A stretch of DNA of 61,904 nt, the filler included, from Hausera hauseri (Eukaryota): the NCBI GenBank assembly GCA_046269625.1. It is 12 parts of 12 records of this genome, joined end to end, with 100 filler letters (N's around TTAATTAATTAA, not from the genome) between each part and the next. Parts side by side here need not be neighbours in the genome. Positions count along the whole stretch, not along the records: positions 8,328 to 14,805 come from JBJURY010096098.1; 11 more parts are not named here. The stretch is one strand, 5' to 3'. The notes below the pieces were generated by a model that was given only the letters and a program-made list of their open reading frames with translations, ran no database searches and was not told the origin of the DNA. The number at the start of each line of letters is the position of its first letter. Within the stretch, counting starts at the first letter, position 1. The translations under genes and the position numbers were made by a program. Below are positions 8,328 to 53,899 of the stretch, in pieces.

Positions 8328-11045
8328 CAATTCGCTTGTAAAGTTTCTTCCTCAGTATGACAAGATTTGTTCGGATGGCCCGTATCTGCAAATGGTTTTC
8401 CAAATTAGAACTTTAGCCAAGGTTTCGGCCTTTTGTTCTAATAACGCCACAAGTTCGACGAAGTGAGTCAATCGGTATACACAGGTCAAAATATATTTGA
8501 TATTCTTGTGGGTCGTAGGTAATGGTCCTACAATATCCATAGACATTGCTTGCATTGGTCTATTGGGCACGTCGATAGACTTAACCTCTGCAACATAGTT
8601 TTTCACTTTTCTCTTCTTGATCGCACACACTTCACAAGCATTTACCCAATTTCTCACGTCAATGTAAATGCTCGACCAACAGTACTTATTTAATATCCTT
8701 TCCAATGTCTTTTTCCACGATATGTGTCCGGCTACGTATGAATCGTGTTTGGCCATGAGTACTTCCGCTCGTAATTCCTTCGGTATGACTACTAATTTTC
8801 ATCCTTTTCGTTTGTAGTATAACAAATTTTCGTGGTTCAAGTCTCCAGCGATGCAGTATTTGTGACAATATCGTCGTAAGTGTTTTCGTAGCTGATGACC
8901 CTTTGTTGTATCAATGTACTTGATAATTTGTTGTATAACCTTGTCTTTTCTCTGTTCGACGACAATCCTTAATGCCTTATCTAGTGTGAGAGTCCGTTGT
9001 CTTTCTACTAAATCTTTAAGGTGTGCTTTCCTCATTACCGTAACTGCGCTTGTTTTGGTTTTAAGTCTCGTTAATGCGTCGGCATCGACGTGTTTACCTC
9101 CGGGTTTGTATTGAAATTTAACATTGTAACGTGAAATTTCTTCTATGCATCTGTTTAGTCTACATCTTGGATTATTTGCCCTACCTTTCAAAGTCGTAAA
9201 TGCTTTATGATCAGTAACAATTATAATCTTTTGTCAATATACGTATACGTTAAAATGTCGCAGTGCTTTTTTTACTGCCAACGTTCCAACTCTGCTACCT
9301 AATAGTTCTTCGCAGTTTTCTTTAGAGAACGCCCTCCATATGTGATTGGGTGTTCTAACTCCTCGTCTCTTTGTTTCTAGCCAGTTTGTATCCGATACCT
9401 TCCTTACTGGCGTTTATTTTGATTATGAACGGTAGGTTAAAGTCGGAGTACCGTAGAACAGGCTCACTAGTTAGAATCTATTTCATTTTATCAAAAGCTT
9501 TTTGTTCTGCATCGGTCCATTTTTACTTAATCCCTTTTTGAGTAAGCGGAATAAAGGTGCGTTTATCTTTGCCTTATCTGGTACGTAGGTTCCATAATAT
9601 CCACATAGACCTAACCAGTGTCTTAATTCCTTCTGATTCTGAGGTGCATACAATCCGATATCTTACTTAATAATGATTTATTCGGCTTCGATCCTCCTTC
9701 TCCGACTATATGTCCAAGGTAAGATACAGCATTTCGAGCCCATTTGCATTTCTTTGGATTCAATTTTAATCAAGCTTGTTCCAGCCTCATGAGTGTACCT
9801 TCAATATTCTTTAAACGTTCGTCTTCCGTTTACAAGGCAATCATGACGTCATCTAAATAGGAGAACGCATGTTCCAGTCCCATTACCATCTTGTTTATTA
9901 TGAGAGTAAAGATAGCTGGTACATTAGTTATTCCAAAAGGCATGACATTGAATTCATATATACAGTCGTGTGCCTTAAATGCTGTTTTGTAACGATCTTC
10001 CTCTTCTATCTCTACCTGCCAATATCGAGAATATAAATCGAGCGTAGTAAACCATTTAGTTCCCAAAAGTCTGTCCAGGGCTTTCTTTACCAATGGTAGC
10101 GGAAAAGAATCCTTCATCATAAGTGTATTTAATGTTCGATAGTCGATACAAAATCGATGTTTAATGGTATTTTTCTTCTTAACCATGAGTATCTGTAAAT
10201 ACCAAGATCTGTAGTTTGGTCTAATTATGTCGGCCTTCAACATTCGTTCAACCTCATTAGTTATTTCTGGCCGGAACAAGTGTGGAGGAGGGTACCACTT
10301 GGGCATCTTTTGAACTTCCAAATCTATTTTGTCGTTGGAGCCAGGTTTTTTTTTAAGTGGAATAGTAAATCTTAAGGTTTTTGCTCGGCCAATATCCTCT
10401 TCATCTCTCGCGATAATCGAGCTGTAACGACAAAGTAAGTCGTAGAATCGGCAGTACGATTCCGATGAAAATTTAGTCTTAACGTGGGGCGGAAATTCGT
10501 CACCCTTATATGGTTTTTCTTCGACGGTGATTGATAATACTCTATACGTGTGTCCCAAAGTGGTATTGGCGTAAAATTTAATCGGGGTTGGTGCGTTATT
10601 GGCTATCTTCATTTGCACACGGCCCGTTGATACTTTTGTCAGAACATTTCTGAGCACGAGGTTTGAATCGAGTGATTCCTTTGGTTCAAAATATATTGGA
10701 TGATCGTCATACTGACGTATCTGAGCATATATTAGTATTTCTGTTCTGGGAGGTATGGTTTCATCTACTGCAATCCACACTTCTCCGAACTTTTTATCTT
10801 TGGTGGTTTTAACTCCTTTTATTGGGCCAAGTTCTATCAACTTACCTGCATTGAAATCGATTGCTATATTAGGTAGTTGTCTCAATATGTCACACCCTAA
10901 CACCACATCATCCGTTAATTGCTCAATTACTGAGAATTCATGACGAAAAGATTGTTCCATTATGTGAATTTCTGGATTCCATAGGAATTTACTCTTCGAG
11001 GATTGTCAAAAAGTCCCAATGCTTCCTGGATCTGTCGTAGGAGGT
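8328..11045 (-). pseudogene. pol: Gypsy pol: PR C-terminal half, dUTPase-like spacer, RT, RNase H, IN (frameshifted)
   Basis: RFCIDYRTLN, FTTLDL..YWQV, YEFNVMPFG, SYLDDV; TDHKAF..L and YKPGGKHVDADALTR; HD..AGH...CEVC zinc finger, MDIVGPLP integrase core. Confidence 0.95.
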
Positions 11046-11049
11046 GGAT

Positions 11050-13252
11050 CTTGCGCAATATCCCGTAGCGTTTTGTTTCTTCGTAGGGATCCTCTCTGTT
11101 CACTGGCTTTTGATAGACGTCTGTCTGACACAAGCTCATAGATTGTTTTTCGCAATCTTCATATATAGGTGCCGTTGGCGGCAATATTGGTAATGGTACT
11201 TTTATAACAGAGTAATTTTTTGTGCCTGTTTGGTCTGGAGATAATGTATCCTCCCTTAGGCTCGTCATCATCAGAATTATTTCTTCGTGTCTTACTGTCT
11301 ATGAATTTTTGCCTGTAATATAATATTTGTCTTTTGCGTTTCCGATCATAGTAGCCAAAATGCCGTTCCACATTTGTTTTCAATTTACTTTCTTCACAAG
11401 CCTTTAAGAATTTACCGAAAGGTGTAATGATAGCCGTTAAAATTTTGCACAAAAATCTTGTCAAGGTAAATATCTCGTATTTATTTATGATTGCTTTAAT
11501 TGTAGCTTTTACCAGTTGAATTAAGAAGCATATTGCTAGAAATCCTGACGCATCTTGTCCGAATATCAGGAATCGTCCCCACATTTTGTATAATATTTCC
11601 GTGGTTACCTTCTTGTAATAGCCAACACCAAGTAATGACTCCAATTTTGCCTGATAGCGCGAGGCCTCTAATATTGTATGCATCGCTCTGTTTAATTCAT
11701 GTGTGCACTGACGAGGAAAAGCAAGAAATTATCTGAACGCCTCTACTGCTTTTGGTCAGTAGATACCCTTCGCAGCTGTATCCTGAAACTTATCATCGGT
11801 TATTCTTTTTATTAAGTTTGTTCCTCTCAGTTTGGTAGGTGGTGCGATAATACCACCGTTCGGTAAACTTACCCAGTCAGTTTCGCTACGTCTAAACATC
11901 GGCTTTTCTAAGCTGGTTTTACATTCTCTTAAAATTGTCGGTTGAGTAGCATTAGCTAATAGTACTCTGGTAATTGGTGTTACTAGTTGCGGTGCGTCTT
12001 GATATATCACTGGAAGCTCTTGTATACACGTCTTCTCTTCCACATTAGTCGGTACGTCTTTCTTCTCGCACTCATACATCAATAAGACTTCTACAGGTAC
12101 TTGTCCAAAAACACCTTCCTTCATCGGAATTATTGGTAATACCAACTCCGGATTTGCATATATTATAGCTACCTTAGTTCTTATGATTTTCAAATCCAAT
12201 TTGCAGTCTTTTATTATCATCTTATGGTACAACTTGGCTATTCCACCTTGTCCTTTATAGTAGAAATAGTCGTCTATGTTCTTCAAATAGTTTTCAATCC
12301 GGATGTCCTGAGTTTTGAATTTGAACGTTCTGGTGTTTATTTCTGTTTCGGCTACGAAAAGTGCTTCATAGTTGGTGGCATAAATTATGACGTCGCATAT
12401 TGTGAGCATAGCTTTCTTTACACATTTTAATTTATGAGTATCAGAAATCAATATAGTGGGTGTAGACTGTTCAGCTACATTTTCTCTTGTTTTAGAGTTA
12501 GTTTCTGTGCGACTTAATTCTTTACTTTTTTAATTCTGATAAAGTTGTAATCGATCTTAGCTGGGGGTTCCCAATTTACTACGGAACTTCAAAACACGCA
12601 TGTGCCATCCTGAATGTGGCACTTGTGTTTCTCGGTGTAAAATTTAGTAACGCTATGGAACATCACTTTCTCTATGCGCATTTAAGTTTCGTAAAAGTTT
12701 ACTACCAAGACGTTTGACTCTAATCCTTTTTGGGTATCGTATTCTGTACCTTGACAATGTCCTGTGTGCATATCTAGTCTTCCTGCTGCTACTTTGTATA
12801 CTCTGATTATTTTCCCTTGCTACATTTCCAGTTCCATACCATCCAATTTTATTCTCCCCGTTTTTCTAGTTTGCTTACTGCTGACGTTCTAAATTCATCG
12901 GAATTAGTGGTGTTGCTTGCTTGATTATTGACGAGTATCCATGTACCAATCCACAATGGAAGATGCTTCGAAATCGGCGTAACATACATTCTACTCCGTC
13001 CAGCGTAACTAGTTCCCGTTGTTCGTATAGTATATAATTTTTCTCTTTTCTTTCTAATCTATGGGGCCTCGCATCTTCGCACATTTCCAAGTCCATTAAC
13101 GAATATTTTTGGCCAAGTTTAAATTTGTCACAATCATGTACCGCAACTGCGCCCATTTGCCTTACTAACATCATCATGGTCAAAAAATTGATTAGCCAAT
13201 TCGATTCATTTCCTCTGCAATTTCCAGTTATATTGTGTAGCAGATCTACCAC
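11050..13252 (-). pseudogene. env: Chuvirus-like (class III/gB-type) envelope fusion glycoprotein, fragmented
   Basis: Signal-like WLINFLTMMMLVRQMGA, then HDC..YSLMDLEMC, EC..R..FHCG, AG....GHC.G..Y, EVLL.YEC, C..ELPVIY, P.TRVL, P.F....W, GIY; TM region WGRFLIFG..SGFLAICFLIQLVK; basic tail. Confidence 0.85.
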
Positions 13253-13259
13253 TCTATTG

Positions 13260-13969
13260 TTATCGAAGAAGAATCCACTCTGATGTTCTTCCTTTTTTCG
13301 ATTAACTTAGACCAGTTCACTTCTAGGGGTAGCTTCCTGGCAGCCTTCCTTGCCAAGCTAGTAGCCTTGTTAAACTCATTTTCTCGATTCGGATTGGTTT
13401 TGATGACCAGATATAGTAACACTTTTCTCTACCATAATTTTCTCAATTATCATTTCATCGCTTAAAGTACTTTTGGTTGATTTACACCGGAGGTTTCTCA
13501 TGGCCTTGGCAGCGTTCGATATGGCCTTCTCCTTCTTGTCTAATATATCATCACCGAGGTTAGATTGGCTTACTATTCGTATCAAGTTTTTCATAAGTTC
13601 GTTCAGCTCCTCATTATCCGCATTAAAATTTGGTATGGACATCTGCCTCAATTCACTGATTAAGTATCCATTATAGTCGATCTCCTCCCGCATTTTCCGT
13701 GGTCTGCCGACAGGACGCTTTTGATTTGTTATAGCAGGTGCACTGCCATCGATCGGTACTAAATTTTTATCATATTGCTCATTATCTTCATCTGTCTGCA
13801 GGTACTTGAAATATACGTCTGCATCTCGGACCCCTATTATTTGTCCTACCTGTTGTTCGGCCTTAGCCTTCCTTATGGTCTCTTCTTTTGTTTCATCGAT
13901 ACTGGTGGTTACCACTAACCGGTTTATTTCACCTGGAATAATTCTGACTTCTATTAACAAACCGAACAC
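13260..13969 (-). CDS. Short gag-like ORF with an AT-hook
   Basis: KRPVGRPRK AT-hook; SIPNFNADNEELNELMKNL resembles the start of a Ty3/Gypsy capsid (IPxFxG-like); lies directly 5' of the glycoprotein signal sequence; frameshifted near 13400. Confidence 0.5.
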
Positions 13970-14135
13970 TTGCTTTTAACAATTCAGCCAGCTCATTAAC
14001 TCCACCCTAGCATTTGATTTTTCAGCTATGAAGAAGTAAATTCTAAACACTGGAAGTGTGTTGCCAACACCCAAAAATAAAAAAACCAGATCCACACACA
14101 CACAGAGTAAGTGGGACTAGACAATTTTCAGTGAA

Positions 14136-14251
14136 GTTAGGTGTGAACGTACAAAGTATGGGACGTTAGGTGTGAACGTACACATTATAGGAAATTATGT
14201 GTGAACGTACACGGTATGGGGAATTAAGTGTGAACATACACCGTATGGGAA
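14136..14251. repeat. 4 x 29-bp tandem repeat in the retroelement 5' leader
   Basis: Units GTTAGGTGTGAACGTACAAAGTATGGGAC / GTTAGGTGTGAACGTACACATTATAGGAA / ATTATGTGTGAACGTACACGGTATGGGGA / ATTAAGTGTGAACATACACCGTATGGGAA. Confidence 0.9.
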
Positions 14252-14505
14252 ATTATTATTATAGTACGAGACAACACTAGGCCTTCATCAAGTACACACA
14301 AAGTAAACACGTTACACGAAAGATGGTAACACTGTGAATGACAAACGAAAATATTAGATAGAGATGGGACATTCGAAACACCAAAATGCCTTGTATCTTG
14401 AAAAAACAATGGAGATTCGAAAACTCGAATGTGTGCTTTTTCCGTACTTCGAATCTCTCGAATCCTTAACAATAACAACAAAAAAAAAAAACTATTAAAC
14501 GTTTT

Positions 14506-14525
14506 AAGTTAGGAAATACGCCATG
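14506..14525 (-). promoter_or_regulatory. Candidate 5' LTR end and primer-binding site (...TTATCA|TGGCGTA...)
   Basis: CA immediately followed by TGG upstream of the leader repeats and first ORF; no second LTR in the contig to confirm it. Confidence 0.4.
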
Positions 14526-15799
14526 ATAATAAACGTTACGTGGCACACTCGACCCATTGTTTACCATTTGAACTACTCAGTCACGACTTCTCGCAGCTCA
14601 GCGTTTTTAGTTCTAAATCAAGGTACTTCTACCAAGAGTTGCGTCGTCTTCATTAGTCCGCTCTAACTGGCTCAACATAAGATTAAGACTTCCCTCTATT
14701 TAGTTTTCCATGTTTAACAACTGTTACATATGTTTACCCTTGAAATAATCTTCCTCCTTCTACATTTGTTTTGATTTAAAATGATTCTCGAAAAAAAAAA
14801 ATATTNNNNNNNNNNNNNNNNNNNNNNNNNNNNNNNNNNNNNNNNNNNNTTAATTAATTAANNNNNNNNNNNNNNNNNNNNNNNNNNNNNNNNNNNNNNN
14901 NNNNNATCAACGGAAACGGTGGAGTGGACATTAGCTCCATACGGCGCTATATATGGAAATTAGAGTGATACGTAGTTCATATTCGCTTGACGCAAAACAT
15001 TCTGAACAATATCTAGAATATAGCTTCGTATTGAACTATGTGGAAGTTTTATTTGTCCATAGAAATATGCGTAAAAGGTAGTGGATCGGCTTGACCCATA
15101 ATTTATCCATAAATGTAAATGGAATATGGTTGCATATTGCTGATTACTTGACGTATAAATCCATTGGTAGCGTTGTTCAAATCATATAATCATTTTTTGT
15201 GCAGTAGACATAGAAATTCACACTTGTGGCAAAAGAAACGATGCTATCAGTCTTGTACGAAATACGCCCTCGAATTTGCTGAGAAAGCCAAAATCCAATC
15301 GTATATTCGGCAAGCTTACTGGGTATGTTAGATGACTATGTTGCTGAATTGTACCCATCAATACAACTGAAGTTTGGGATATCAATCGCCGAAATGTGCC
15401 CAAACGAAATGTCCAGATTTGTTGTTGTGCAGCAAACCAACTGTCTAAAATATTTTATTTGTTCTTGTACAGAAATTACTGATATAATTGATCTGTCATA
15501 TTGTAAGTTAGAATTATCCATTGACAGCACGTTTACTTTCGCATCACATAGAGTCAACGGAGTATTGTGATATGACCATTGTGATAATACAAATGATACT
15601 GTGACGCGAAGAGTGTTATACCACATACTCGCATATGAGTTGGCGAAAGGCACGTTCAGATAATTTAAAACATTTTGTATTGCTGATGTTAGCGATGGAG
15701 CATTAATTTTGGTTAAAGTGCCACTGGTGTAAGATACATCAACGGCGTTTTGGTAATAACCACATACATTTAAAATATATTGATTTGTATTATTTGCAT

Positions 15800-16217
15800 A
15801 ATAAAACTGCTGCAGGTGGAAGCACATATTTTAACGTAACCCATTGACATCAGTATTAGATTTGCCGATATAATGGTTAGGAAACCACTGACTAGAAACA
15901 TTTGTAAATAGGACACGGAGAAATACAGCATAACGCATCCAAAGAGGAAGAAGATTGAAGCAAAGCATTTGGCAATTTTGAATTGAAAATAATCGAATAG
16001 AAATCCCAATAGAAGAGCCATAAAAGTCTGATAAGCCATCCTCAGAACAACAGCGTGATGGAGGAAAGGTTCTCTTCACAGATATTTCTGTTGCTGGGGA
16101 ACGTGCTTTCGTAAGTTGAAAAATTGCGAAAACCTTTTTAGCCGATGAGAATCCATTAATTATACCGATGAATCCGAAACTCTCTACCACCAGAATGATA
16201 CATAGTGAAAAGACCAA
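15800..16217 (-). pseudogene. SLC43A/LAT3-like MFS transporter N-terminal fragment, frameshifted
   Basis: VESFGFIGIINGFSSAKKVF (TM1-like) and FMALLLGFLFDYFQFKIAKCFASIFF (GxxxD MFS motif A context) in two frames. Confidence 0.55.
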
Positions 16218-16310
16218 AAGATAATGTTTCTTGGATTGAGTATAATATTGCGAGAGATGATATTCCTTGTATCATCTTTATAGGATGTGGATTAAGTAGA
16301 GGGACTAGAG

Positions 16311-19300
16311 AATCGGGCCCAACTATAGGTCCGACGCGGCGGCAATGGACGCCCGGCCGTGCCCAACCTAATGGGCCAGAAGGGGCCGGCCGCTGTGGGC
16401 ACCACATTACCCCCCTGTGGTAAAGTGAAAACTATGAAGTGAAAAGGGCAGAAAGAAAAATTCGCAAAACGAAAACTGTCTGTGTCAGCTGAGCTTAGTG
16501 TGAATAAGACGTTGGGTACCTTCAACTGATTTATCCCTCCTATATTTGCTAAATGTGACTCTGCGTGTTGTGTCTTTATGCGGTGTGTTTGTTGGCAGAG
16601 ATAGAGGTTGGGGAAAAATATGTTAGATTGTGGTGTAGGTGTTGTGTCGTGCGAAGATAAGTCGGAATAAAGAGAAGAAGAGGCCGAAGAAGGAAGAGAA
16701 ATTGCTGAAGATGGATGGTTAAATACATTGAAAAGAGTGTTAGAAAAAGAAGGAGTGATAAAGGTTTAGTGGCGGATAAAGGAAGAGAGAAAGGGTTGGA
16801 GTAGAAATTGGAATTGAGTTGGATGTAAGAGTGAAAGAGGAAGATAAAACAGAGTGAGTGGTAGAGATAGGAAGAGTGGTAGGAATAGAAGTAGGTGTAG
16901 AAAATGAAGCAGGACTAGGAGCAGAAGGGGAAGGTAGAACAGGTGTAGCAATAGATATGGGAATAACAGGGAGCGTAGGCGTGAGAAAAGAGGTTGACGT
17001 GTCGGTTGGTAGTGTCGTCGACGAAGAAGGCGCGCTTTATGTTGGTAATATGCACTGTAAGTACTTTGCCATCTTTAGAGATAATGGCGTTGTGTGAGTG
17101 CAGCTGTATCAGTTTATAGGGTCCCAGGTACCGTGGCTGGAAACCCAAAGGCGCTTGATTCTTTAGCCATAAGAATTTTGCCGAATACAAATCTTCGGGT
17201 AATTATATTTTATCTTTGTGAAGTAGCCTGCAGAACGAATCTTTGCTGACCGTAACGAAGTGATTTTGCGCTGTCCGTACTGTTTCATCCGTGCGAGTGT
17301 CGTCCAGGGCGGTCAGTTCAAAGAATGATCGGACAGGAGCTGCAAATAAGGGTTCAGTAGGTGAGCATCCTGTAGAAGTGGACGGAGTGTTTCGCCAGCC
17401 GAGCTTAACAAACGGACGAAGATTCGTCCAACTAGTGTTGGACTCTGCGAGGAATCGTAGTGACGTTTTCAATGTTCGGTGTAAACGTTCTAGAAGTCCA
17501 TTCGATTGGGGGTGATAAGGCGTAGAATATATATGATGGATCCCCAGTCGGTTAACAAGGTATTTTAACAGGTTGGATTCAAACTGTGGACCCTGGTGCT
17601 TGACAATGAAGCGAGGTGATCCAAACCTGCTAATCCGTGTGTGAATGAAAACGTCAGCTATAGTGTCGGTATTTGTGCTCCGCAGAGGGTGGCTTCTGGC
17701 CATAGCGAGGAACGGTCCATCATGGTGAGCATGAATTTATGTCCGTTGTCTGGCGGAAGAGGGCCAACGATGTCGATATGCACGGATTCAAAACGCGATG
17801 TGCAGGGAAAATGGAATAGTGGTGACTTTAAGTGCCTAGCTATTTTATATTTCTGGCAAGACAGACACTTTTTAACCCATGACTGCACATCAGAACGCAT
17901 TGACGGACAAATTACTTGTCGATGGAGTAAACGACAAGTGGCTTTAGCTATAGGATGGTGTAGTGAATGCACGCTGTGAAATGCTTGCCTTTGCAATGAT
18001 GGTGCTAGAATTATTACGGAATGGCTTGGTTTGGAAGTGTCTAAAGCCACGCCGTCAACGATTGTGCAAGATTTGAAAGAATTAAGAATGTCCTAAGGTG
18101 GCTGGTTCTGTTGAAGTTGATCTTGCATAAAAATCGGTGAAAAATTAATGGAAATAACCGACCTAGATAAAAAATCGGCAACCAAATTGTTAACACCGTC
18201 AATATGTTTAATGTCGCTGTTAAATGTCGATAAGCATGATATTTGTCGTTCTTGGCGTGCGGAACAGTGTTTCATAGCCATGATGTTAGGTAAGGTCTTG
18301 TGATCGGTTTGTATAGTGAAATGACGAGCGACAAGTAGGTAGGAGAAATGCTTTAAAGCGAGAACGATGGCCAATAGTTCTCGATCGAACGTTGAATATT
18401 TGGTTTCAGGTGCTGTTTGCTTGCAAGAGAAAAATTTTAGTGGTTGATTTTCTCCCTTGTAGATCTGGTGTAGCACAGCGCCTACTGCAGTGGTTGACGC
18501 GTCTGTAGTAAGGATAAGTTCTGCATCAGGCTTGAGGAAAGCAAGAGTATCGAGAGTTTTGATTCCTTCGCGTAACTTATCACATTTGCCAATTAATTCA
18601 GGTATCCACTGGATTGGCTGTTGTTTCGTGCCGCCGCTTAGGTATGCGAATGTGCTGTCAATTCGGAGCAATATTGTATTTATTTATGTACAAAGTGTAG
18701 TGTACCAAGGAAACTGCGCATTTCGGTGGTTGTGCGTGGCAACTGGATATTTTTAAGAGCTTCGACTGGGTCTGGTTGGGGAGAATGACCATTTGGTAAA
18801 ATAATGTGGCCTAAAAAGTTAATGCGCTTTTTGAAGAAATGGCATTTGTCGAAACTCACTTGGCGATTATGGTGGTTGAGACGTTGGAATATTGCGCGAA
18901 GGTGTTCCGCGTGTTGTTTGGCCGAAGATGAAACGACTAGAATATCATCGATATAAGGGTGTGCAAATGGGAAATCGGAAAGAATTGAATCAATGTGCCG
19001 CTAAAAAGTTTGTGGGGCATTCCGCAAACCGAATGGCATAAACAGGTATTCATAGAGGCCGAAAGGAGTAGTGACAGCAGTTTTTTCTATGTCATCGGGG
19101 CCAGCGGTATTTCATGGTATGCTTTAGCTCAATCAGTGGTCGAATAAATGGTGGTTGAATTAAGACGATGCAAGATATCCTTGATAAGTGGTAAAAAGTA
19201 CGCATCCATGATAGTCAAGTTGTTCAGCTGTCCGTAGTCATCGCATGGTCTAAAGGTACCGTCCTTTTTTGTACAACGTGTAAAGGTGGTGACCAAGGAA

Positions 19301-21440
19301 ATTTGGACCGGTGTACTATGCCGGAACGTTCTAGTTCAAGAAATTCGGCATCTACGGCCTGCCTACGACGAGGTGACAGAGGTCGTACCTTTTGGCGTAT
19401 TGGTCGTTGATGCTGTGTAACTATATGGTGTAAAGTACTGTTTGCGGAAGTAAACGTACGATCTTTTTTAAGTACGCGTGGGCATGATGTGTTGACGAAT
19501 TGTTGTAAAGTTGTAGTTAACTGTGAGAGATTCGGTGAAAGTGGTGAAACGGCTTGAGTAGTAGCGGATGCAATTTGTGAGTTGTCTGGTGATGTGCAAT
19601 AAAGTGGTATTTTGTGTAAAATGGTCGAATTGAAAATAGTGTTGGGTGAAGTGATTTCGTCGCATGAATTAACGTTGGTGGCAGTACCAAAATTAACGAC
19701 ATCGAACCTCGATCGAATATCAGTATTATTATTTTAAAATTTACTAATTGAATTATTGTTATGAAAATTCGAATTATTCATTGATTTTTTCAAGATTGAC
19801 CTCCGCGTCCCGGTCGACCGAGCGGTAATCGAAATGCTATTGACATGCCCAGAAATGCCGCCAGTGGTGCCGTTCCTTAAACATTGCTGACTGTATTCAA
19901 CCAATAGATTATAATATGATAGAAAATCGGATCCAAGAATTGACGTCTGGACGTTAGCGACTTCGAACGTTTAATGGAAATATGAAGGAAATTTTGGTAA
20001 GATGAAAGATAATTTAGCCATGCCAGAAATGTGCAGCGGTTGGCCTGAAGTGGTGTATAAGGGCTTAATTCTGAATGGAGAATTTTGTACAGGAAAGGTT
20101 TGTGGTAATAAAAAAATCGCTGCACCTGTATCGATTAGGAAATCAACAGATTGCGTTGTAGGAGCGGTGATTGCAGCTTTTAGAGTAAAGACAGCAAAAG
20201 AGACGTTTCGGCGTTCAGAACGTGAAGTAGTGCCTTTGCGAGAGTTTGCCGTGGCTTCTTACGACGAACTCAGTTTTTTTGAAAGGGTGAACTAGTACGA
20301 ATATTAGAAGGAAAGGTAGTACGTCCGTCGTTTGTATCTGATTTGAAAGTGCAGCTTGGAATGCATTTACGAGCTTATTTTTTAAACCTTGCGTGGTAGA
20401 TGCAAACAACCAGGAAAAACACTTGTTATAAAATTTGCACCCTAGGCAGCAATTCTGAGCACTAGTGTTAAATCTTCTGTGGTAATAGTAAATTGACGAA
20501 CGCACAGGCGATGGTGGGAGGTTTCTAGACGCAGAACGAACACGGTCAACGACAAAATCCCTCCGGCGGGACAAGGTGAGTTCGCTTAGTTTATTATTAA
20601 TATTGTTGATTGTTGATTGTAGTGCAATATTTTCAGCACGTAGCTGATTAAGCTGTTGTTCTAATGATGTGTTATTGGTTTGAATATTGTTAGCGGCAAC
20701 TGCTGCCAAAACAACTGATGGGGAATTTACGTGTAGGACATCGTGTGTCCTATCTGCTAATTCGGCCAATTTCTCAAGAGGCGTGGAGTCCTCGAACACG
20801 ATAAGTATGGCACGGATTTAGATAGGTAAAGCATTGAGGAAATAGTGGCGCAGTAAGTCCGGATTGTGTTCTTTAGTGACGCCGAGGGTATGTAGATGTG
20901 AGAAAGAGGTGCGTAATAATTCTGATGGTCGTTGCGTGTCTATAGCAATGTCGTGGAAGAAACGTTATATGGTCGTATCCATGGAGGGTTCTGTGATTTT
21001 AAGAACGGCATTGAAGAGTTAGGGATATGGGTCAAAAAGTTCAAAAATTTCGATGATGTTGCAAATGCGTGTTTTGATGTTATTATGGAGTAAAAAGAGA
21101 AGATTGTGTGCCTTGGTTAAAGAATCAGTAATATAGTTGATGGAATTGCAACCATGTTTTGCTGGATCCTTGGTTGTCAATGAAGAATTCGGTGCAGTTA
21201 AGGAAAGGAGCGGAAGAGGTAATGTATGGGAAGTTGTTAGCAGGGGTAGAAATGGGTTTTTGAAGCAATATGACAGATTTTGGTTTCATGGTGGTTGTAT
21301 CCGTGGTGTCTATGGTTGGCAATGAGTTCATGCAACCACGGGTACGGAAGTGTATGTGGATACAAGTATGGGTTGAGGAAGATGGTACAGTTCCAGTGAG
21401 GAGTACTATAGAAGTAGTAGGTAAATGTACCTTCTCCCTC
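16311..21440 (-). mobile_element. CsRn1/Kabuki-like Ty3/Gypsy retrotransposon, copy A (gag-pol, decayed)
   Basis: gag with CxYH..F..A..C...C boxes; FLIDTGAA protease; RT (PYIDDIL); TTDAS RNase H; VHIDIVGPLP and PYHPQSNGLLER integrase; GPY motif; PPT AGGGGGG at about 16410-16416; LTR start TGTGGTG at 16406. Confidence 0.93.
20238..20280 (-). promoter_or_regulatory. -1 ribosomal frameshift signal between gag and pol (A AAA AAC-stop plus downstream stem/pseudoknot)
   Basis: gag ends ...CAA AAA AAC TGA; the -1 frame leads to the FLIDTG protease (one stop in this decayed copy); homologous sites in copies B, C and D. Confidence 0.75.
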
Positions 21441-21680
21441 ACCCCCGGAAGGGTGGGGGTAATCGATAAATCGATTTTGCACATGTGCCAATCGATAGTG
21501 CACACGGAGCACTATCGATCTGCAGTGTGCTAGGCAACGGTGCCCCTAGGTACCGTTGCTAATGGCACTTTTGCACTTTTCACAAATCGATAATTGCACA
21601 GTGTAGTATTGATTGAAGCGATCAGGACAAAGTGATAATCGATAGAGCACATCGAGGTTCATCGATTGGTACATGTGCAA
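21441..21680. repeat. Nested-palindrome element (MITE-like)
   Basis: 20-bp inverted repeat 21477-21496 / 21661-21680 (1 mismatch); internal hairpins at 21491-21519 and 21534-21559; many ATCGAT sites. Confidence 0.7.
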
Positions 21681-22329
21681 GTGTGCANNNNNNNNNNNNN
21701 NNNNNNNNNNNNNNNNNNNNNNNNNNNNNNNTTAATTAATTAANNNNNNNNNNNNNNNNNNNNNNNNNNNNNNNNNNNNNNNNNNNNATTTGCTCCAGAA
21801 GAGCACTGAGAGACCGCCTGATTTTATATGTCGAATCGAGATTTGAATCATTTGAAATCGAATTAATAAGTTTCGAATCGGGTAATTTCTCCCGAACTGG
21901 AACACAAGGAGCTTATCTGCTGTGTGACGATGACCGACTAGAATTCTGTGAGGAATTTTCTGTACTCTGAGAGTTGGATGCATTATGAGATCGAATTTGA
22001 GATTTATTTGTTGAACAAGCGTCATTCGTTTGATTGTTCGTCAATTCGGAATTTTCAAAATCATAATTCAAGGGCAATTTCAATCGGCAATCAATATTGG
22101 CATTAAATTTCTGTTTGCTCGATTTGGTAATATCCTTGTCGTTGTCAAACAGGTTTTGTTTTGTTCGGACACCTGAACCTTGGTTTTAATTCATATTTAA
22201 AGGCCCGAGAGTAGTCGTTTCATTTGGCGCTGTAGTACCTGTCAACTGTTTTGGGACTATTGATGCCCGAGATCTTTACATACAAGGCATACTTGGTCTT
22301 CTATCTGTAGATACAGCAGCATATGATTT

Positions 22330-23330
22330 TAGTAATTAAAATGCCTTTTAGATATAGTTCACCAATAAACCTTATAATTCCAAAATAACGATCTTTAACT
22401 TTTTAAATTTGTTCGCCAACATTACTTTCTATCGGTGCTTTTGTTTATGGTTTTTCATTGGCTGCTTTTAAAAGCCACTTCTCTTTTACACTGTCTAATT
22501 ATTCTTCTAAAGGGGTCGTGAAAATGGCCTGACACTTTTGAAGCATAACACTTCTGAACGTAACAATTTCATTATCTGAAACGTCGGCTTTAATTTTGGC
22601 TAATTATGAGCAGATTTTGGAAAATATGACACTGTATGCTTCTTCTTTAACCGCCTTCAGAAATAATTCGTTTACCAAACACGTCATTTCTTCATGTGTA
22701 CCAATTTTCAACGATACAAGATCTTCAAGACATTGATCAAAATTTTGGGGCACTATTCTATTCAATATTCCTTTGATTTGTCGGATAAGTTCCTCGGATT
22801 CATTGATTTTTTTGCCTGCAGCCATTCTTTATCGAGCTGTTATGTAACCGTCATCACTTCTCTGTACAGTGGCGTCAGAAGTTCCTAAGTTAATATATTT
22901 GGGACCAATAGATCCACTTCTAGCACCTGGACCTCTACATGTATTTAAACGATTCGGTGAGTTCTTCATATTCTTTTGGTTCAAGGAACGAATACTTTCA
23001 GCATTGATATACGATGAAATATTAAGTGGATCATCAAGGATAATTGGATCGGTAAAATTTTCTTTCGAGGGCAACTTCTTTGGTTTCTGTCGACTTAAAT
23101 CACTCTTTCCAACCCGCAGAAGATCATCCCTCGTGTAAATGAATCGAATCGGTTGTTTGATGTCAGACGACGATTCCGAAATATCGTTACTATTTTGTAT
23201 TACCACCAGTTCGAAGTTCACGTCTGATGAATAGCAATATTGGTCCAGAAATTCTTTCTCCAAAATTTTTATCGGCTCACTATGCCTCGTCAAAATTTTC
23301 GACTGATTGCTATTGATATTGTTGTAACTT
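22330..23330 (-). pseudogene. eIF4G-like pseudogene (eIF4E-binding motif plus MIF4G domain)
   Basis: YTRDDLL (YxxxxL-phi) at about 23117-23137; IKGILNRIVPQNFD, LFLKAVKEEAYS, FRSVMLQKCQAIF, GIIRFIGELY; in-frame stops and a frameshift; no introns evident. Confidence 0.85.
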
Positions 23331-23340
23331 CTCTCGTGAT

Positions 23341-26300
23341 CTCGAGACGAAAGATCGGGCCCGACTATAGGTCCGACGCGGCGGCAGCGGATGCCCGGCC
23401 GTGTCCAACGAAATGGAGCAGAGGGCGCCGGCTACTGTGGGCACCAAATTACCTTTCCGTGGCAAAGTGAAAACTATAAAGGGTAAAAGAGTAATAGAGA
23501 AAAAAACACAAAACGAAAAAGTGTTTGTGTCAGTCGATTTTAGTGTGGACAAGACGTTGGGTGCCTTCTAGTGATTTTTCCCTGCTATACTTGCTGAATG
23601 TGACTCTGTGTGTTTTGTCTTTATGCTGTATGTTTGCTTGCGGAGTTTGAAGTTTGGGAAAAATTGTAGAATTTTGTTGTGAGCATTGTGTTTTGCAAAG
23701 ATGAATCAGTATGAAGAGGAGGAGAAGGTGAAGGAAGAAGAGAGATTGTTGAAGACGGATGGTTAAAAGTATTCAAGAAAGTGTTAGATGAAAGAATGAT
23801 AAAAGGTGTAGTGGCGGTTAAAGCAAGAGAGAGAAAGGTTGGAGTAAAAGTTGAAATGGAATTGTGTGAAAGAGTGGAAGTGGAAGATGAAATAGAGGTA
23901 ATGGTAGAGAGAGGAAGAGAAATAGTGATAGAAGTACAAAGAGCAGGAATTTGCGAAGCGCAAATGAAGGGGGTAGAAGACGATGTGTGAGGAGAAAGGG
24001 GGCGAAAGCGCCGAAGATGAGGAAGATGTGAAAAGAGAAGGGCAGAGAGAGAGAGAAAAACGGCGAGGCGGTACAAGGCGAAAGAGAGCGAGAAGATAGA
24101 GAAGGAAAAGGAAAGTAGTTGAAGGGTGGTGTGCAAGAGGTTAGAATGATGAAAGGTGTAGATGGTGAAATTGGTGAAGTCGAGGTGGTGTTTGATGGAG
24201 GAGGTAGTGTAAAAGGAGAAAGCAGGTTGTTATGAGGGGATGAAGGAACTATGAAAAGGCTTAAAGGTGCAACATTGGATGGGGAAGAAGAGGCTTTATT
24301 GTGAGAGGAAATTGAAGTGGAAGTTTTGGGAGAAAAAGTAGGGGAAAGTGTATTAAGACATTGAACACAGATGGAAGGTGAATTGTTGGATTGCTGTACG
24401 TCGTATAAAGATGTTGGTGGAGAAGTGACTTCGATGGGAGACGTATCGTCGATGAAGAAGGCCGGTTTAGCATTATTGATGTGAACTGCTACTTCCTGGT
24501 CGTCATTGAGAATGATGTTGTAAGAGTGTAAGCGAATTAGTTTGTAAGGGCCGACATACTGAGGTTGAAAACCACACGGCGTCTGATGTTTTAGCCAAAC
24601 GAACTTGGCGGTATATACATCGTCGGGTATGTAAGGTTTATTTCCGTGAAACAGTCTGCAAAAGGAGTCTTTGCTGATCACAACGAAGTGTCTCTGTGCC
24701 GTTTGTATGGTTTCTTTTGTAGGAGTATGGTCCAGCTCAGTCAGCTCCAATATTGATCTGATGGGAGTGCCACATAATGCTTCTGCAGGTGAACAGAGTG
24801 TATAAGTAGATGGTATGTTCCGCCAGCCAAGCAGAACGTGCGGACGCAGTGTGGTCCAATTGCGATTGGACTCAGCAAGAATTTAAAGAGACTTTTTCAT
24901 CGTTTGATGAAAGCGTTCGAGAAGGCCATTCGATTGGGGATGATATGATGACGTGTGAATGTGGTCAATTCCCAATCAATTGACAAGAGCTTTAAACAGA
25001 TTGGATTCAAACTGTGGACCTTGGTCCGAAATGATGTGGCAAGGTGATCCCAACCTTCTGATACAAGTGCGGATAAAAACGTCTGTGATAGTTTCTGTGT
25101 TGGTGCTTCGAAGAGGGACGGCCTCTGACCATCGCGAGGAACGGTCCATCATTTTAAGGATGAACTGATGGCCGTTGTCTAAAGGTAGTGGGCTAACAAG
25201 ATCAATGTGAACAGATTCGAAACGAGACGTGCAGGAAAAACAAAATAATGGTGGGTTTAAGTGCTTAGTAACTTTGTATTTTTGGCATGTCACACACTGC
25301 CTAACCCAATTCTGCACGTCAGAGCCCACCGACGGTCATACTATTGGCGTCGTAAGAGTCGAAAAGTGGCCTTGGTACCAGGATGGTGCAACGAATAAAT
25401 GTTGTTGAATGCTTCTTTTTAAAGCGATTCAGAAAGAATGATTTTAGGATTATTATGTTTGGAAGTGTCAAAGGCCACACCGTCGATGGTTTTGCACGAT
25501 TTAAAAGATTCAAGAATGTCAGGAGGTGGCTGGTTTTGTTGAAGTTTGGATTGAGGAAAAATTGGTGTGAAATCAATCGAGCTGACCGATCGGAACAAAA
25601 AGTGAGCTATTAAATTGTTAACTCTGTTTAGGTGTTTAATTGCAAAATTAAATGTGGACAAATGCGATATTTGCTTTTCCTGACGTTGAAAAGGCGATTT
25701 CCTGTTCGAATTTGAAGCAAGGACTTGTGGTCCGTTTGTATGGTAAAAGTTCGTGCAGTTAGTAGATGTTTAAAGTGTTTTACAGCAAGGGCCATTGCAA
25801 TAAACTCGCGGTCAAAGGTGGAATATCTCTGCTCTTGTGCCGTGAATTTTTGAGAGAAGAATTCTAATGGCTCATGGGATCCATTTTTGATTTGATAGAG
25901 AGCAGCACCTGCAGCTGTTGTGGATGCATCCGTGGTTAAGAAGAGTTCTGCATGGGAGTCTAGATATGCCAGGATCTCAACCGTTTTTAAATTGTCTTTG
26001 AGGCGATTAAAAGTATTGACTAAATTGCCGGTCCATTGAATGGCTGTTTCTTTTCGACAGAGCTTAGTGATGCAAATTGAGCGGTTAGAGTGGAACAATG
26101 TAGAACGTGCTTATGAATAAAGTGCAAGGTTCCGAGGAAAGAACGCATCTCTGTTGATGTACGTGGTAGCTGTATGTTTTTGAGCCGCATGATGCGGTCC
26201 GGCCGAGCTGAATGTCCGGAGGATTTAATAGCATGTCCTAGGAAGTTGACCTTTTGTTGACAAAAGGAGCATTTAGAAAAATTTATTTGCAAGTTGTTTT

Positions 26301-27670
26301 GGCGCAAGCCTTGGAAAATCAAACGTAAATGTTCGGAGTGTTGTTTCGGGGAAGATGAGGCAATTAGGATATCATCAATATAGAGATAGGCGAAGTCTAA
26401 GCCTGATAGGACCGTATCGATATGCCTTTAGAAGGTCTGGAAAGCGCTACGGGTTCCAAAAGGCATAAAAAGGTATTGGAAAAGGCCAAAAGGTGTGGTG
26501 ACAGCCGTTTTCAAAATGTCGGCTGGGTCCACCGGGATTTGGTGGTACGCTTTGTGCAAATCAATGCAGGGAAATATGTTCAAACCATGGAGCCTGTGAA
26601 GGATGTCGTTGATTAATGGTAGAGAGTAGGCATCCATTGTTGTTATGGTATTGAGTTGGCGGTAATCACTGCATGGGCGAAAGGTACCATCTTTTTTGGA
26701 ACCACATGCAGTGGTGAATACCAAGGGGATTTAGATCCTCTGATGATTCCTGATCTTTCCAGTTCGAGGAACTCAGCATCCACTGCCTGTCTGCGACGAG
26801 GCGATAGCGGATGGGCCTTTTGACGTATTGGTCTCTGATGTGCTGTTACTATGTGATGGAAGATGGATTGAGGTAATACAAATGATTTGTCCTTCTGCAA
26901 CAGACGCATGCAGGAGGACCAAATATATTGCTGTCGATCAGAAGGCAACGATGACAAGTTATCCGATGGTGTAAATGCATCGTGACTGTATGCAGTTTAG
27001 GTATGAGTTATAGCGAAATGTTGTTACTGGGTGGTATGTGGTGCATGATGTTCGTGTTGAAGAAGGTGTTGACAGCTGTGCTATAAAAAATAGGTGCCAC
27101 GCAGTTGGCAATATCGTATTTGTCACCGTAGTAAAAAATTCAGTATAATGTATGATTATGAAAATAATTTAAATCAGAAGTCGTTTTTATAGTATTGACT
27201 TGCTGGAAGCGATCGCCAGGGTGGTCACCGAAATGCTGCTAATTTGATTAAGATTATTTTCGCTCTTTAAGTAACATCGTTTGTAGTTTACAAGTAATTT
27301 ATAGTGGGACAGAAAGTCTGAACCCAATATAGGTGTGCGTACATTGGCTACTGTAAATTTCCAAATGAATGTGTTTAGGAAATTTGGAAGAGTGTAGGCT
27401 AATTTAGTAACACCAAAAGTTTGTAAAGGTTCACCGGATGCAGTGAACAGTTGATTTTTTGAAGTGAAATTATTTTGGATGTGCTGTGTTAGTAGTAGTA
27501 AAGAAATTGATGTGCCGGTGTCTATAAGAAAGTTAATGTTTTGCTTTGTTGGAGTGAGGACTACTGCTTCCAACGTGAATACAGTAAAAGAAATGTGTCG
27601 GCTATCTTTTTGCAGGTTGTTGCCTTTGCTAGAACTTGCCATGTGTCCTAGCGGCGAAATCAGTTTTTAG
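23341..27670 (-). mobile_element. CsRn1-like Gypsy copy B (pol only; gag absent upstream of the frameshift site)
   Basis: FLIDTGTS, RPCSDYRQLN, IDLHKAYHQIP, MPFG, LYIDDIL, TTDAS, VHIDLVSPLP, GPY; same GC-rich 3' end as copy A. Confidence 0.92.
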
Positions 27671-28337
27671 TAGCTCGTGAGTTTTGCCTACTATTTTGTG
27701 TGGGTTTAATAGTGTTGATTTTATTGTGCGTGTTGTAGTTATAGCCAGGTAGGCATTTTTGTGCTTTTTAGAGTTGAGATATGGAACAAAACTCGGAGTC
27801 TGTGAAGCACCGTTTATTTCAACACCATGTTGTACATTAAAACGGAGTTCTCCTTCGTCGAGTTGGTGATTTGACCTTTTGATGATTTCTTCGGATTTTA
27901 TTGTTGCCAAAAGTCTAACTAAATAATCTACCGCGTTTATTAGTTAAAAGGAAACAAATTTTTAATTCATATAATTTTTTGTTGGCGTTCTTTTAACGGA
28001 AACGCCCTTTTGTAAAATTTAAAATGTTTTACGAAAGTTAATAATTAATATATAATTTAAATGGTATCAATCGAGTTTCCCCTTCACATCCTCCCTCCAA
28101 GGCGAATGCCCGAGCCTAACATTTCTAGCGTATCATTTGTAGTTTTCTGAACTTTTGTGAGTTGCTGTGGGTTTACGTCCGTCTGTTGNNNNNNNNNNNN
28201 NNNNNNNNNNNNNNNNNNNNNNNNNNNNNNNNTTAATTAATTAANNNNNNNNNNNNNNNNNNNNNNNNNNNNNNNNNNNNNNNNNNNNAAGAGGTAGAAC
28301 ATAGAAGAATGAAACATCAATATATCGGTTCGGAACC

Positions 28338-32177: not shown

Positions 32178-32639
32178 TGTATAATCTTATGAGCAGAAGA
32201 AGAAAGAAGCACAAGTATTTATACTGCAATGTAGCTTGAACACACACACAATAAAAACAAATACGTAGCGAAATTATATATTTATATGTGATTAAATACG
32301 GTCAATCAACTTTTTCATTACAATACAAAGCGAAGCAGTAAATACAAGTCCAATGAGGAAATTAATNNNNNNNNNNNNNNNNNNNNNNNNNNNNNNNNNN
32401 NNNNNNNNNNTTAATTAATTAANNNNNNNNNNNNNNNNNNNNNNNNNNNNNNNNNNNNNNNNNNNNTACATGTGCTTGTGTGTATCCACTTTCTGACTGT
32501 GTGTGTCCTATCTCCGCCCTATTAATCGTGTATGTGTGTATCGTTTTTTCTACCCCATGACTTATCCGCGAACCACAATAATTTTTCTTCCGCGGGGGGG
32601 GGGTCTGATCTCATGGACTCACATCTACCTACTATCCGC

Positions 32640-35600
32640 CTTACCCACTTATGCTTTTCATCATTGCATGATAAAGCTACTTTTGTATTGGTCACCGTAT
32701 ACAGCTGATGCTCAATCGATCGGATGATCATTTGTGAGATAACAGACTTTGATTATCCTTTCTCTTCATAGACACGGCAATAATCACCGTGGGCCAACTG
32801 AACTCCTTTGGCTGAAATTTCCAGCCCACCGTCAGTTAAAAGGCTATAATGATTTGGCCATAGAAATACCATTTCCGATACTGAAGGCGACCTTCACTTT
32901 CATCCTTGAAGCGGCCGATTTTGTTTGTGATGGAACTGCTGTACAATTGATGATTCTGTGTGTAATTGAACGTGTCTAGTAATCTGTCTTCCATCATATG
33001 CTGCAGCATTTGTTCGAAATTGACATTTTCCAGTTCAAAAAATATACTATCTGTGTCACCGGCAAATATATTGATCCTGCCGTTGCCGCCGAACATTGGC
33101 CGGTAACGTGCCAAGTCGCAATACTGCGGCTCATACATCCGCAACTTTTTCAAATCCAATACCACTTGTCCGATGTAACTTGGCCGGTCCAGAACGATTT
33201 CTTACCGGTTTAACAGCACCGCAACCAATCTATTGGCAATGTGCATTGACCGCCGAAACTGTGCCTTGCTGGTATACGAAACCAGTCGCTTTTCGCTATT
33301 GCATAGGCGTACACTGAGCCGCATTTCTAGATTCGCCACTGATTTTCCGTACAGGAAATTGTTTTTCAGCCTATAGTAGTCCTTCTCAAACTTTGTACAA
33401 GCTGCGGCTCGTTTCTCCGAATTTCCATCTATGTGCTGCTTAAATATGGGAGTCTGAGCAAATCGGATTGTGCAATGTAGCCGTGTGATGCGTACACCAA
33501 ACCGCATGTAAAATTGCAACAAATGCCAATTAACTATGTAATTTTTCTTTGGTTTTAAAAGCAGCTTCTTTACCTTCGAGGCCGGCAGACATTGGCAAAT
33601 TGGTGCGACCGGCAGTTCATTCAAAATTCATGCAGCTCATCTGGTACCACAAGATTGACCTCCATCAGGTATCCGATTGAGCTGTTTTATGCTGTTGTCG
33701 TGTCCGCTCTCGACACATTTTCCAGTATTTTATCCAGATCCTGTTTGTCGACTACCCATTAGAATGAAGCGTACGGCAAGGGTTGTGAAAGCGCCCAGCC
33801 GTACAGGTTATTAATATCGATATACAACAGTGATGTGGTATCATCACTGGTTACGTGATGCTTGTTGACAAATGTCACGCCGCTACGAATACCAACATCA
33901 AACATTCGGTACATTTCCAGGTCTTGCAATAACTTGATGTCCCTATCCAGTGACATCAGAGCTGATACCCAACTCATTCCGGGTATTCAGTAAAAGTTGA
34001 GTGGCTCTAGCCTATTTTTCGCCAACGTTTTTGCTCGAAACCTGGAACACAGGCTAATAAGTACACTTGCAATTTAAGATACTGTAGCATGTAATCCAAC
34101 ATGTTTCTACAGCCCAATTCTGTCCATGATTCTTGTGTTCTCCGATATTCATCTTCTGTGATGCATGGCCATCGGGGCGGTAATTTCTCTGCTGTCCGGA
34201 GTCGCTTCTATGATGTTGCAAAGTCATGGAAATATGCCTTTGCTGCGTACAATGTGTGGGAACTGTGTTGAGCTTATCGGCACATCCGACAAGGCATTTA
34301 CCAGCTTCGCCAATGATATATTGAGAAATTGCAATGAATCAAGGAAGCGTACCTGGAACCGGTTTATGCGTGCTGACAGTTCATGCGTACTTCTCCATTG
34401 TTCTTGGGATGATGGACAGTTCCCTGTGCGGAAATACGTTGATGGCCCATTTCAGTATATGGTGAAAATCATAACCTCGGAAATTATGAAAGATCACTGG
34501 TAGGAATGGCCGCACACGCCTTGTTAAATTGCATGCGTTGTATGCTGCTCCCAGGTATCGACCGGTTAAATGATCATGGTCCGGCACGAGCCGTTCCTGT
34601 GCATTAAAAGGCAATATTTTGTGGCAGAGCTAACATTCATCGGTGGCAGCGAAAAGCAGCTGTTCATATTCGTCTGTCCATATCAAGGGCTTAGTGCTAT
34701 TGTTACTGTACCACGGTACTATTTCTGTTTCCACTATCGTTTTCAACTGTTGCAGGAAATCGCGTATACAGTTCCAGCCATGAAAAACGTAATATTGCAA
34801 TTGTCTGGCGGCTTTTATTGGAGCAACCAACATATTTACGGCGATTGGAATGTGCTTGGTCGTATACGTTGTGCCGCGTTAGGATTGCCTCGATATCGGC
34901 ATATACCACATATGTCGGACTGTCTGTTTTCGACCAGTCACTGAATCTTAGCTCCTTTTTGACTGGCATGACGTACATTGTTGTCCCTGATGAATTTTGT
35001 ATGCACAGCGCCACATGTTTTCCTGTCGTTTTTGACCTGAAACCATGCGCCATGTAAGGCACTATTTACAATTTATACGCTTTTTGATGAATTGCTGGTG
35101 ATACATGTTCAACAGTCTGTCCAAATTGGTTACTGCCACGTAGTGAAATTTATCTGCTTGCTCCAATAGCAACAAATTTACCGAGCGTCCATTCGGGTTC
35201 CAACTGCGATAAATTATATCCACGTGTTGGTTTTTGTATATCTCTTCGTCTGGTGGTATTTCTACGATTGTGTTGTACCGGAACACGTTGATTGCCAGTG
35301 TCGGATTAGGCCGTTCAATAGCCGGAATGGTTTTGAGTTTCATCGGCATCCAACACTCGTCGTAATCCAATTCTGAGAAATACTATACTGCTTTGGACAA
35401 TTTGCATGATGCCTGGACACTTGATCATATTTCAAGGGCCAGAATGCTGTAAATAAAGCAATATTTGTCGTTAGTATTTTGTACATTCACTACTGCCAGA
35501 GACTGCTTCAAGGATGCAAGTGTCGGTATGAATGAACTTCCAGACAGGTAAATTATGTCACTCGTCTTGGTCAGAATAAAGACGAGAGTGACAATCTTTA

Positions 35601-36469
35601 CAATTCGCCAACCACTGCCCTTTTCGGTGTGGTTGGCGATTTTTTCGTCAAGCTTTTCGCCTTCATCGGCAATAAAATCCTCAGAGTATGGTACGGCTCG
35701 ATGTGACAGGTACCATTGTTTCCTGTCACCCTGCAGATTTTCAAATTTTGCAAGTGCATAATATTGCACTTTGCAGTGGTGTTGGAATTTGGCTATTTCT
35801 GATTCAAACCGGTTACGCACATTAGCGGGTACATCCTTCAATTGCGTTGCTGTTTTTGTCGATATGTCCACCTTCATGTCCACGTACGATTTGTTCAGGT
35901 CGTACTTGACAGCAATGGGCGGTTTACCTTTCTGCTGCTGCTCCTGTTTCTGACTTCTGTTGTTTTGAAAGTATTCGTCAAGGCTTGCTGATGCTTGACG
36001 TTTCCTGTTGCTTCATGCTGCGTCCATTAATATTTCCTTTTTGGACATCTGAAACTGGTTCAAGTGGTCCTTGTGAATGTTGTAGAATTGTTAATAGTTG
36101 ATTTCATCAACTATAGAACGACCGGGACAAACGTAGGCCCGTTTACCGTACTCCGTTGTGGCGCCATAGTACTGCTCCATTGCACTATGGCAACCATCAA
36201 CGTCATGCACTCTACTACTACTACAGTATCGTGAATGTGGTGCAATGCACAACCATCATCTTCGACCGCGTGAACGGACCGAGATGATGATTGTGCATCT
36301 GATAAAAGTCGGCGTACGAGTATGTGTTTTCAATAAAACACACGGGACACAGGTGCGTGTTTTTGGCCACTGAATAATATTTGGCCATTTCCTTGAGGCA
36401 TTGCCCACCCTCATGTATGCGTGAGACGCAATACATGGGATATTTTGCGAACATTTTTGAATGATACAC
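32640..36469 (-). pseudogene. polB: Polinton/adintovirus protein-primed family B DNA polymerase (tandem Cys/His N-terminus, TP/vOTU region, endonuclease VII insert, exonuclease, polymerase)
   Basis: KGSGW, GSSFIP..VVNVQN..YCF, HYV.VTNLDRL, VVYADIEA, DHDHLTGRYLGAAYNACNL, FHNFRGYD, YIDINNLYGWA, RLKNNFLYGK, GDTDS, IGRFKDE, IRSIEHQLYT..KVALS; many frameshifts. Confidence 0.93.
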
Positions 36470-37388: not shown

Positions 37389-37549
37389 CGTAATGACTTA
37401 CTCTCGTTTCGTCGACATAAATTCAGAAAACCCGAACGTTATATACTCTACGAATATTCTATAATGCTACTAATTTGCTGATTGTATTGTACGACTTTTC
37501 GTTTGTAATTTCGTAAGTTATTTATTTACATAGGGAAATTGTGAAATTT

Positions 37550-52704: not shown

Positions 52705-52729
52705 TTCTGAAATCGTTTCCATTTACAGT

Positions 52730-53860: not shown

Positions 53861-53899
53861 GAAAAGACGAGTGAATCAAAATGGCAGAAAACAATTGAA

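Follow-up and report, generated by a model that had tools for sequence, protein, structure and literature searches.

The window analysed is a stretch of 61,904 nt from Hausera hauseri (assembly GCA_046269625.1), in which 12 contigs are joined with N-linkers. The contig at positions 8328–14805 carries a retroelement, here called copy 1, that encodes a viral-type envelope protein (Env). It lies on the minus strand, in the order T-rich stretch, open reading frame 1 (ORF1), signal-like segment, Env, protease (PR) remnant, reverse transcriptase (RT), RNase H (RH) and integrase (IN). A second copy (copy 2) is found on a separate contig on the plus strand (46181–52291), where Pfam and hydropathy locate Env, PR, RT, RNase H, integrase and a second signal-like segment. 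The two copies are 67–71% identical in DNA, and both have Env on the strand of pol and upstream of it. Copy 1 is probably dead and belongs to a Ty3/gypsy-type element that is present in many copies and has the gene order GAG-ENV-POL; ORF1 would be a spacer, and the breaks in the reading frame would have arisen by decay after insertion. The range over which such elements are known points to an animal host.

The pol part of copy 1 (8328–10859, minus strand) contains RT (YLDD at 9859), RNase H and, of integrase, the zinc finger and the first part of the core (Pfam RVT_1, RT_RNaseH, Integrase_H2C2 and rve), the integrase core being interrupted by the contig edge at 8328. An Env-pol linker and protease remnant occupy 10860–11158 (minus strand). 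About 410 nt of copy 2, including the catalytic protease motif, are absent from copy 1 near 11040. The PR-RT-RNase H-IN order is complete in copy 2, which has lost the 5′ part of its Env at a contig edge. A Ty3/gypsy affinity of pol would fit the Pfam families as well as the GPY-like motif that follows the integrase in copy 2, and when the RT-RH regions of relatives were used as queries, the top score fell on an Env-bearing copy in five of six cases.

The Env of copy 1 (11159–13147, minus strand) comprises an ectodomain, a membrane segment (11572–11510, minus strand) and a tail, and is matched by PF24664 in three pieces (E 7e-5, 2e-17 and 5e-10). Comparison with the frames of copy 2 shows it to be broken near 12878 and 12520, in addition to carrying in-frame stops. 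For modelling, the three stops in the Env of copy 2 were read as X, and the sequence was aligned with 35 matches out of the 150 listed from the HMMER search described below. The model has a mean predicted local distance difference test (pLDDT) score of 85.6, and all 37 matches listed by Foldseek are herpesvirus glycoprotein B (gB), the best with E 3.8e-13 and a template modelling (TM) score of about 0.4. The cysteine spacing of Env is conserved with five relatives. By its modelled fold, Env is a gB-type class III fusogen.

A signal-peptide-like segment at 13148–13201 (minus strand), recognised by hydropathy, precedes the predicted mature start of Env at 13147, and the PF24664 match begins within it. 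Upstream, the Env frame stays open as far as 13306, well beyond this segment, which bears out the original prediction that the signal of the glycoprotein is preceded by an open frame. Its best 17-residue hydropathy is 1.11, compared with 1.26–2.48 in 13 relatives, making it the weakest of the group, and its best 12-residue hydropathy is 1.96, compared with 1.94–3.45. The nearest in-frame ATG is just 10 codons ahead of the predicted cleavage site, so that a separate start there would give Env without a full signal.

A HMMER search with Env against 1.84 billion representative sequences gave 504 matches at E 0.001, of which the 150 best were listed. The 18 matches of at least 130 bits are referred to as the closest relatives, and are about 24–33% identical over Env. 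Twelve of these carry 154–1370 in-frame residues before Env, while the other six are fragments that either begin inside Env (three) or miss its start (three); none of the 18 starts at its own signal. On the downstream side, the same ORF continues past Env into protease in 11/18 and into RT in 5/18. Because 12 of the 18 extend in frame, none starts at the signal and 11 reach the protease, the proposal that Env is made as part of one precursor with an internal signal is well supported by these relatives. A CCHC knuckle is present upstream of Env in six of the 12 extended relatives, one of which also has a Retrotrans_gag match (E 1.7e-4). A continuous gag-env-pro-pol frame holds for several relatives, and for the broken copy 1 it can be inferred from them.

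A number of observations on the relatives count against the explanation preferred here or favour a rival one. The other six extended relatives have no knuckle in their ORF, and five of the 12 (P0002, P0004, P0005, P0007 and P0015) begin 154–373 residues before Env. P0024, P0030 and P0038 (272–304 aa), which are weaker matches but by eye resemble the close family, start at the signal. Identity over Env is only about 24–33%, and the starts are the output of gene callers; P0004 and P0152, which form a single 90% cluster, differ in their predicted starts. Among the 132 weaker matches listed are 72 whose start coincides with their own signal and 9 with long extensions.

Individual relatives show further peculiarities. 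P0152 (4844 aa) contains seven protease-like stretches together with ankyrin and C2H2 matches, and repeated protease-like units are also present in P0008 and P0002. Residues 1–365 of P0015 are without capsid or knuckle; by eye they resemble a DEDD-type exonuclease, for which Pfam gives no support. The P0003 polyprotein is filed under a Flavobacteriaceae metagenome-assembled genome, and is probably a eukaryotic contamination of that bin.

In copy 1, ORF1 and Env share one frame, with four stops between them (13378, 13372, 13360 and 13309). The EHQSG frame leading into Env, which had been thought to overlap the end of ORF1, is indeed open but does not overlap it; instead, a third, bridging frame, open for 60 codons (13249–13428, minus strand), overlaps both. 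As originally predicted, just two frame changes separate ORF1 from Env, the second at an A6 run (13298–13293). The first, placed at about 13400, is also a real break but is probably nearer 13430, where the bridging frame opens. This position comes from X1, the single public run containing the stretch (share 0.31) and possibly not independent, in which one contig is gapless over 13328–13428 and ends at that point. No RNA run was listed as containing the stretch. A total of 13,285 contigs of X1 were placed on the stretch, and the family is therefore large. Open off-frame stretches are common in copy 1, the minimum bridge needed (24 codons) being open at 307/2558 off-frame positions, 45 codons at 74/2264 and 57 codons at 33/2096, and so the bridging frame is only moderately above chance.

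From their sequence context, the breaks near 13430 and 13295 look like decay and not recoding, for three reasons. At least six further frame changes are present in copy 1, namely a cancelling pair in Env (12878 and 12520, approximately), over which copy 2 keeps to a single frame, and four in 9645–9296, and the protease motif is lost as well. The A6G heptamer at 13298 is of the X XXY YYZ form, and its phase is that of Env and not that of the bridging frame. Finally, the length of the A-run varies among other copies (4 + 4 contigs of X1, about 27% of local depth). This is near the variant shares in X1 at sure lesions, which are 29% at 12878, 28% at 9646, 38% at 9372–9378 and 13% at 11221. Comparison of further copies over 13200–13450 thus points to decay in the variable A-run but is less clear in two respects, both unfavourable to decay of a once continuous frame: the first break has no entry among 12 of the 21 rows of X1 variants, and for the three X1 contigs that cross the second, the net length (counted by hand) is compatible with a continuous frame in one and incompatible in two. 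These three contigs could be decayed copies in their own right. Of the two routes first proposed for joining core and Env, a precursor or a frameshift, the relatives uphold in-frame protein before Env, whereas the phase of the heptamer and the signs of decay speak against a programmed frameshift.

ORF1 (13376–13975, minus strand, 199 codons) has no start of its own and shares the A-rich composition of the element. It was originally taken to be a short core, but Pfam finds no capsid, Gag or zinc-knuckle match in it, and the sole signal is an AT-hook-like motif (13694–13720, minus strand; AT_hook, E 0.09), which precedes the start of mature Env by 191 codons. A similar motif precedes Env in 5/13 relatives (4/12 clusters), these being P0002, P0004/P0152, P0008 and P0018. 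In P0008 and P0018 it follows the knuckle, at distances of about 190 and 225 residues upstream of mature Env, and is hence in the spacer rather than in a core. From its position and this one short motif, we infer that ORF1 is probably a spacer between Gag and Env.

Other comparisons count against ORF1 as a spacer. Its alignment to the P0018 spacer scored 55, which was equalled by 5/500 shuffles and was the best of 13 proteins in four forms each; this match was reached only with the bridging frame added, the only frame that improved it. Against the whole N-termini of relatives, the score was equalled by 17/300 shuffles. Profiles of the Bcl-2-like and ubiquitin-like segments in the spacers of relatives missed ORF1, and a five-sequence Gag profile gave 4.7 bits (E 0.8) on its helical part; the top match of the same profile (6.0 bits) is in another part of the window and is probably a gag. 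ORF1 might conceivably be a worn capsid remnant. Atlas searches with ORF1 and with the P0018 spacer gave no usable match, and a single-sequence model of ORF1 (pLDDT 33) was uninformative. A likeness of ORF1 to the ubiquitin-like and Bcl-2-like spacer parts, seen by eye, is not claimed, since profile and pairwise tests failed to uphold it.

The spacers of some relatives share a GGW motif and give Pfam Bcl-2 matches that are all below cut-off (P0005, E 0.00096; P0018, 0.055; P0007, 0.2; P0013, none). P0018 also has a weak ubiquitin match (E 0.031), again below cut-off. These modules are possibly captured from hosts.

Upstream of ORF1, a T-rich, non-coding stretch (13976–14805, minus strand) extends to the contig edge, and may be leader, flank or insertion. 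Its A–T skew is negative over 14605–14006 and becomes positive from about 14000 on. Rfam gave no match in this stretch. No integrase and no other Pfam family was found in the three element-strand frames of 13976–14805, and within the limits of the contig Env is therefore not the end of some neighbour lying upstream. That part of the original prediction holds, with Env ahead of pol in both copies and no integrase upstream of 13969. In the copy 1 contig, whose edge is 830 nt above ORF1, no capsid or zinc knuckle was found upstream of Env. This could be due to truncation, to an insertion, to loss of gag from within the element or to an N-terminus that is short by nature. The summed depth of X1 contigs is in the thousands below 13943 and 5–164 above it, and as depth is not a copy number, this drop is given no weight, either way, on the question of a 5′ end.

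The T-rich stretch could instead be a true leader, with ORF1 as the whole N-terminus, a divergent short capsid or core-like nucleic-acid-binding protein in an element lacking a canonical Gag. Coding composition does start at about 14000, close to an in-frame ATG at 13996, although a stop follows this ATG after six codons. Further upstream are a 29-nt tandem repeat of 4–5 units (14104–14255, minus strand; 4.2 copies, 84% matches) and a CA followed by TGGCG (14512–14525, minus strand, junction at 14523), a weak candidate for a long terminal repeat (LTR) end and primer-binding site (PBS). The latter fits the tRNA-Ser-type PBS in supplement 1 of Chary and Hayashi (PMC13524379) at 8/12 letters by eye, and CA occurs within 3 nt before TGG at 5 of the 12 TGG of the stretch. 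The stretch has no polyA or TATA motif, it does not recur in the window, and no second LTR was found there, both copies ending at contig edges. This may be the 5′ end of the element, as originally claimed, but the PBS candidate is weak, and truncation or insertion is also possible. The five relatives that begin 154–373 residues before Env without a knuckle would suit a short N-terminus, as would the faint Gag-profile score on ORF1. On the other hand, ORF1 has no Gag family match, these short N-termini are predicted starts (which differ within the cluster of P0004 and P0152), and the AT-hook-like motif is behind a knuckle in P0008 and P0018. This reading as a whole is, on balance, unlikely.

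Drosophila errantiviruses make Env from a spliced subgenomic RNA or from a start of its own. A separately made Env would be in keeping with a single acceptor-like site of moderate quality whose end is at 13254 (9/14 pyrimidines) and with the own-signal starts of 72 of the 132 weaker matches listed, but it is highly improbable here given the closeness of the first in-frame ATG to the cleavage site, the lack of any start at the signal among the 18 closest relatives, and the openness of the Env frame well upstream of the signal. A programmed ribosomal frameshift in the A-run that would join ORF1 and Env, suggested by the heptamer, has the smallest chance of all, as the heptamer is phased for the Env frame and not for the bridging frame that must slip, two successive recoding events would be required, the A-run varies in length among other copies, and the relatives need no shift.

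With the precursor as the preferred reading, a working scheme can start from the fold class of Env, the domain order at this locus and the single-frame continuity in relatives. A single frame would supply Gag plus spacer, the internal signal, the gB-like Env, the membrane anchor and PR-RT-RNase H-integrase. The N-terminal part would be made in the cytosol, after which the internal signal would start translocation of the Env ectodomain and be cut by signal peptidase. The anchor would then stop transfer, returning Pol to the cytosol, where the protease of the element would free it, and a second signal after integrase would export a further membrane protein. In copy 1, the capsid and zinc knuckle would be absent through truncation, insertion or internal deletion, and the frame breaks would represent decay after insertion.

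In copy 2, the stretch after integrase (51960–52291, plus strand) holds, in the same frame, the second signal-like segment, with a 15-residue hydropathy of 2.47, and the start of another domain. Some relatives have two hydrophobic peaks after Env, which makes the topology less certain, as a cytosolic Pol requires an odd number of membrane segments between Env and the protease. P0002, P0003, P0015 and P0152 end in at least two hydrophobic segments flanking an extra domain (signal, ectodomain, anchor). A fibronectin-III-like motif was seen by eye in the C-terminal domain of P0002 and P0003, but Pfam does not confirm it. The second membrane protein and the Bcl-2-like and ubiquitin-like spacer modules were not found in print in a search lying mostly outside the subscription literature, and the figures or GitHub of PMC13524379 may cover them; Bcl-2, ubiquitin and fibronectin domains do not occur in its main text.

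As a single decayed copy, copy 1 represents one more GAG-ENV-POL lineage. Where a single frame encodes Gag, Env and Pol, as in relatives, its product would have to cross the membrane more than once, which raises questions of processing and of the Gag-to-Pol ratio. How a lone gB-type Env finds cells is described as unknown in the part of PMC13524379 used here, and one possible answer is the conserved second membrane protein encoded beyond integrase. A bolder and rather doubtful proposal is a capsid-less, enveloped gypsy-type lineage that is read in the manner of the structural polyprotein of an RNA virus, with a short AT-hook core, signal, gB-like fusogen, anchor, Pol, second signal and membrane protein (a possible receptor binder) in one frame and at a one-to-one ratio, with relatives carrying Bcl-2-like or ubiquitin-like modules in the N-terminal slot. 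Intact copies without a capsid, if true, would be a real surprise.

Elsewhere in the window (14906–28188 and 36996–41816) are three related gypsy-type copies (about 60–88% alike), in which integrase is followed by Ser/Thr/Pro-rich tails and no Env was seen. ORF fragments at 32467–36895, 52392–54000 and 57598–61904 read by eye like Polinton/Maverick genes (protein-primed polymerase, adenain-like protease). Locus scans of viral, metagenome and genome contigs found no relative, and three word-index protein searches gave no match, which is weak evidence.

Nematode endogenous retroviruses (NERVs) are said to have a single continuous gag-env-pro-pol ORF, and reportedly also accessory ORFs, a Chromadorean host and RT monophyly. 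Their Env and pol are in flipped order (Sacco et al. 2022, as cited in PMC13524379). The Anakin BEL/Pao elements have a chuvirus-like glycoprotein of the same broad family, PF24664, according to the part of PMC7642597 used here; in contrast to these, Env is here ahead of the protease and pol is gypsy-like. An Env downstream of integrase, as in canonical GAG-POL-ENV errantiviruses or Anakin, was seen in neither copy. P0034, in which DUF5641 is followed by Env, scored 78 bits, far below the closest relatives. Its DUF5641 is presumably a BEL-type domain. An identity as Troyka was dropped, as no Troyka encodes an envelope in the part of PMC12440569 used here. Ty3/gypsy 'errantiviruses' of GAG-ENV-POL order with an Env of the HSV/gB kind (HSV, herpes simplex virus) are described from Nematoda, Bryozoa and Platyhelminthes (Chary and Hayashi, PMC13524379, again in part); whether their three genes make up a single ORF is not stated there. 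Copy 1 differs from these in being decayed, with no Gag or LTR pair seen, and in place of the intact ORFs on which inclusion there is based, it has many stops, at least eight frame changes and one large deletion; because of this decay, it is filed as of the GAG-ENV-POL kind and not as an intact member. In common with them, the element has Env before pol, a gB-type fold, the PR-RT-RH-IN order and many copies, and by eye the planarian elements Smed_errantivirus_1-6 (group C1a, supplement 2 of the same study) share the cysteine order and motifs of Env with the one described here and its closest matches. The gag-env-pol arrangement with a gB-type Env is already published, and copy 1 adds a further member.

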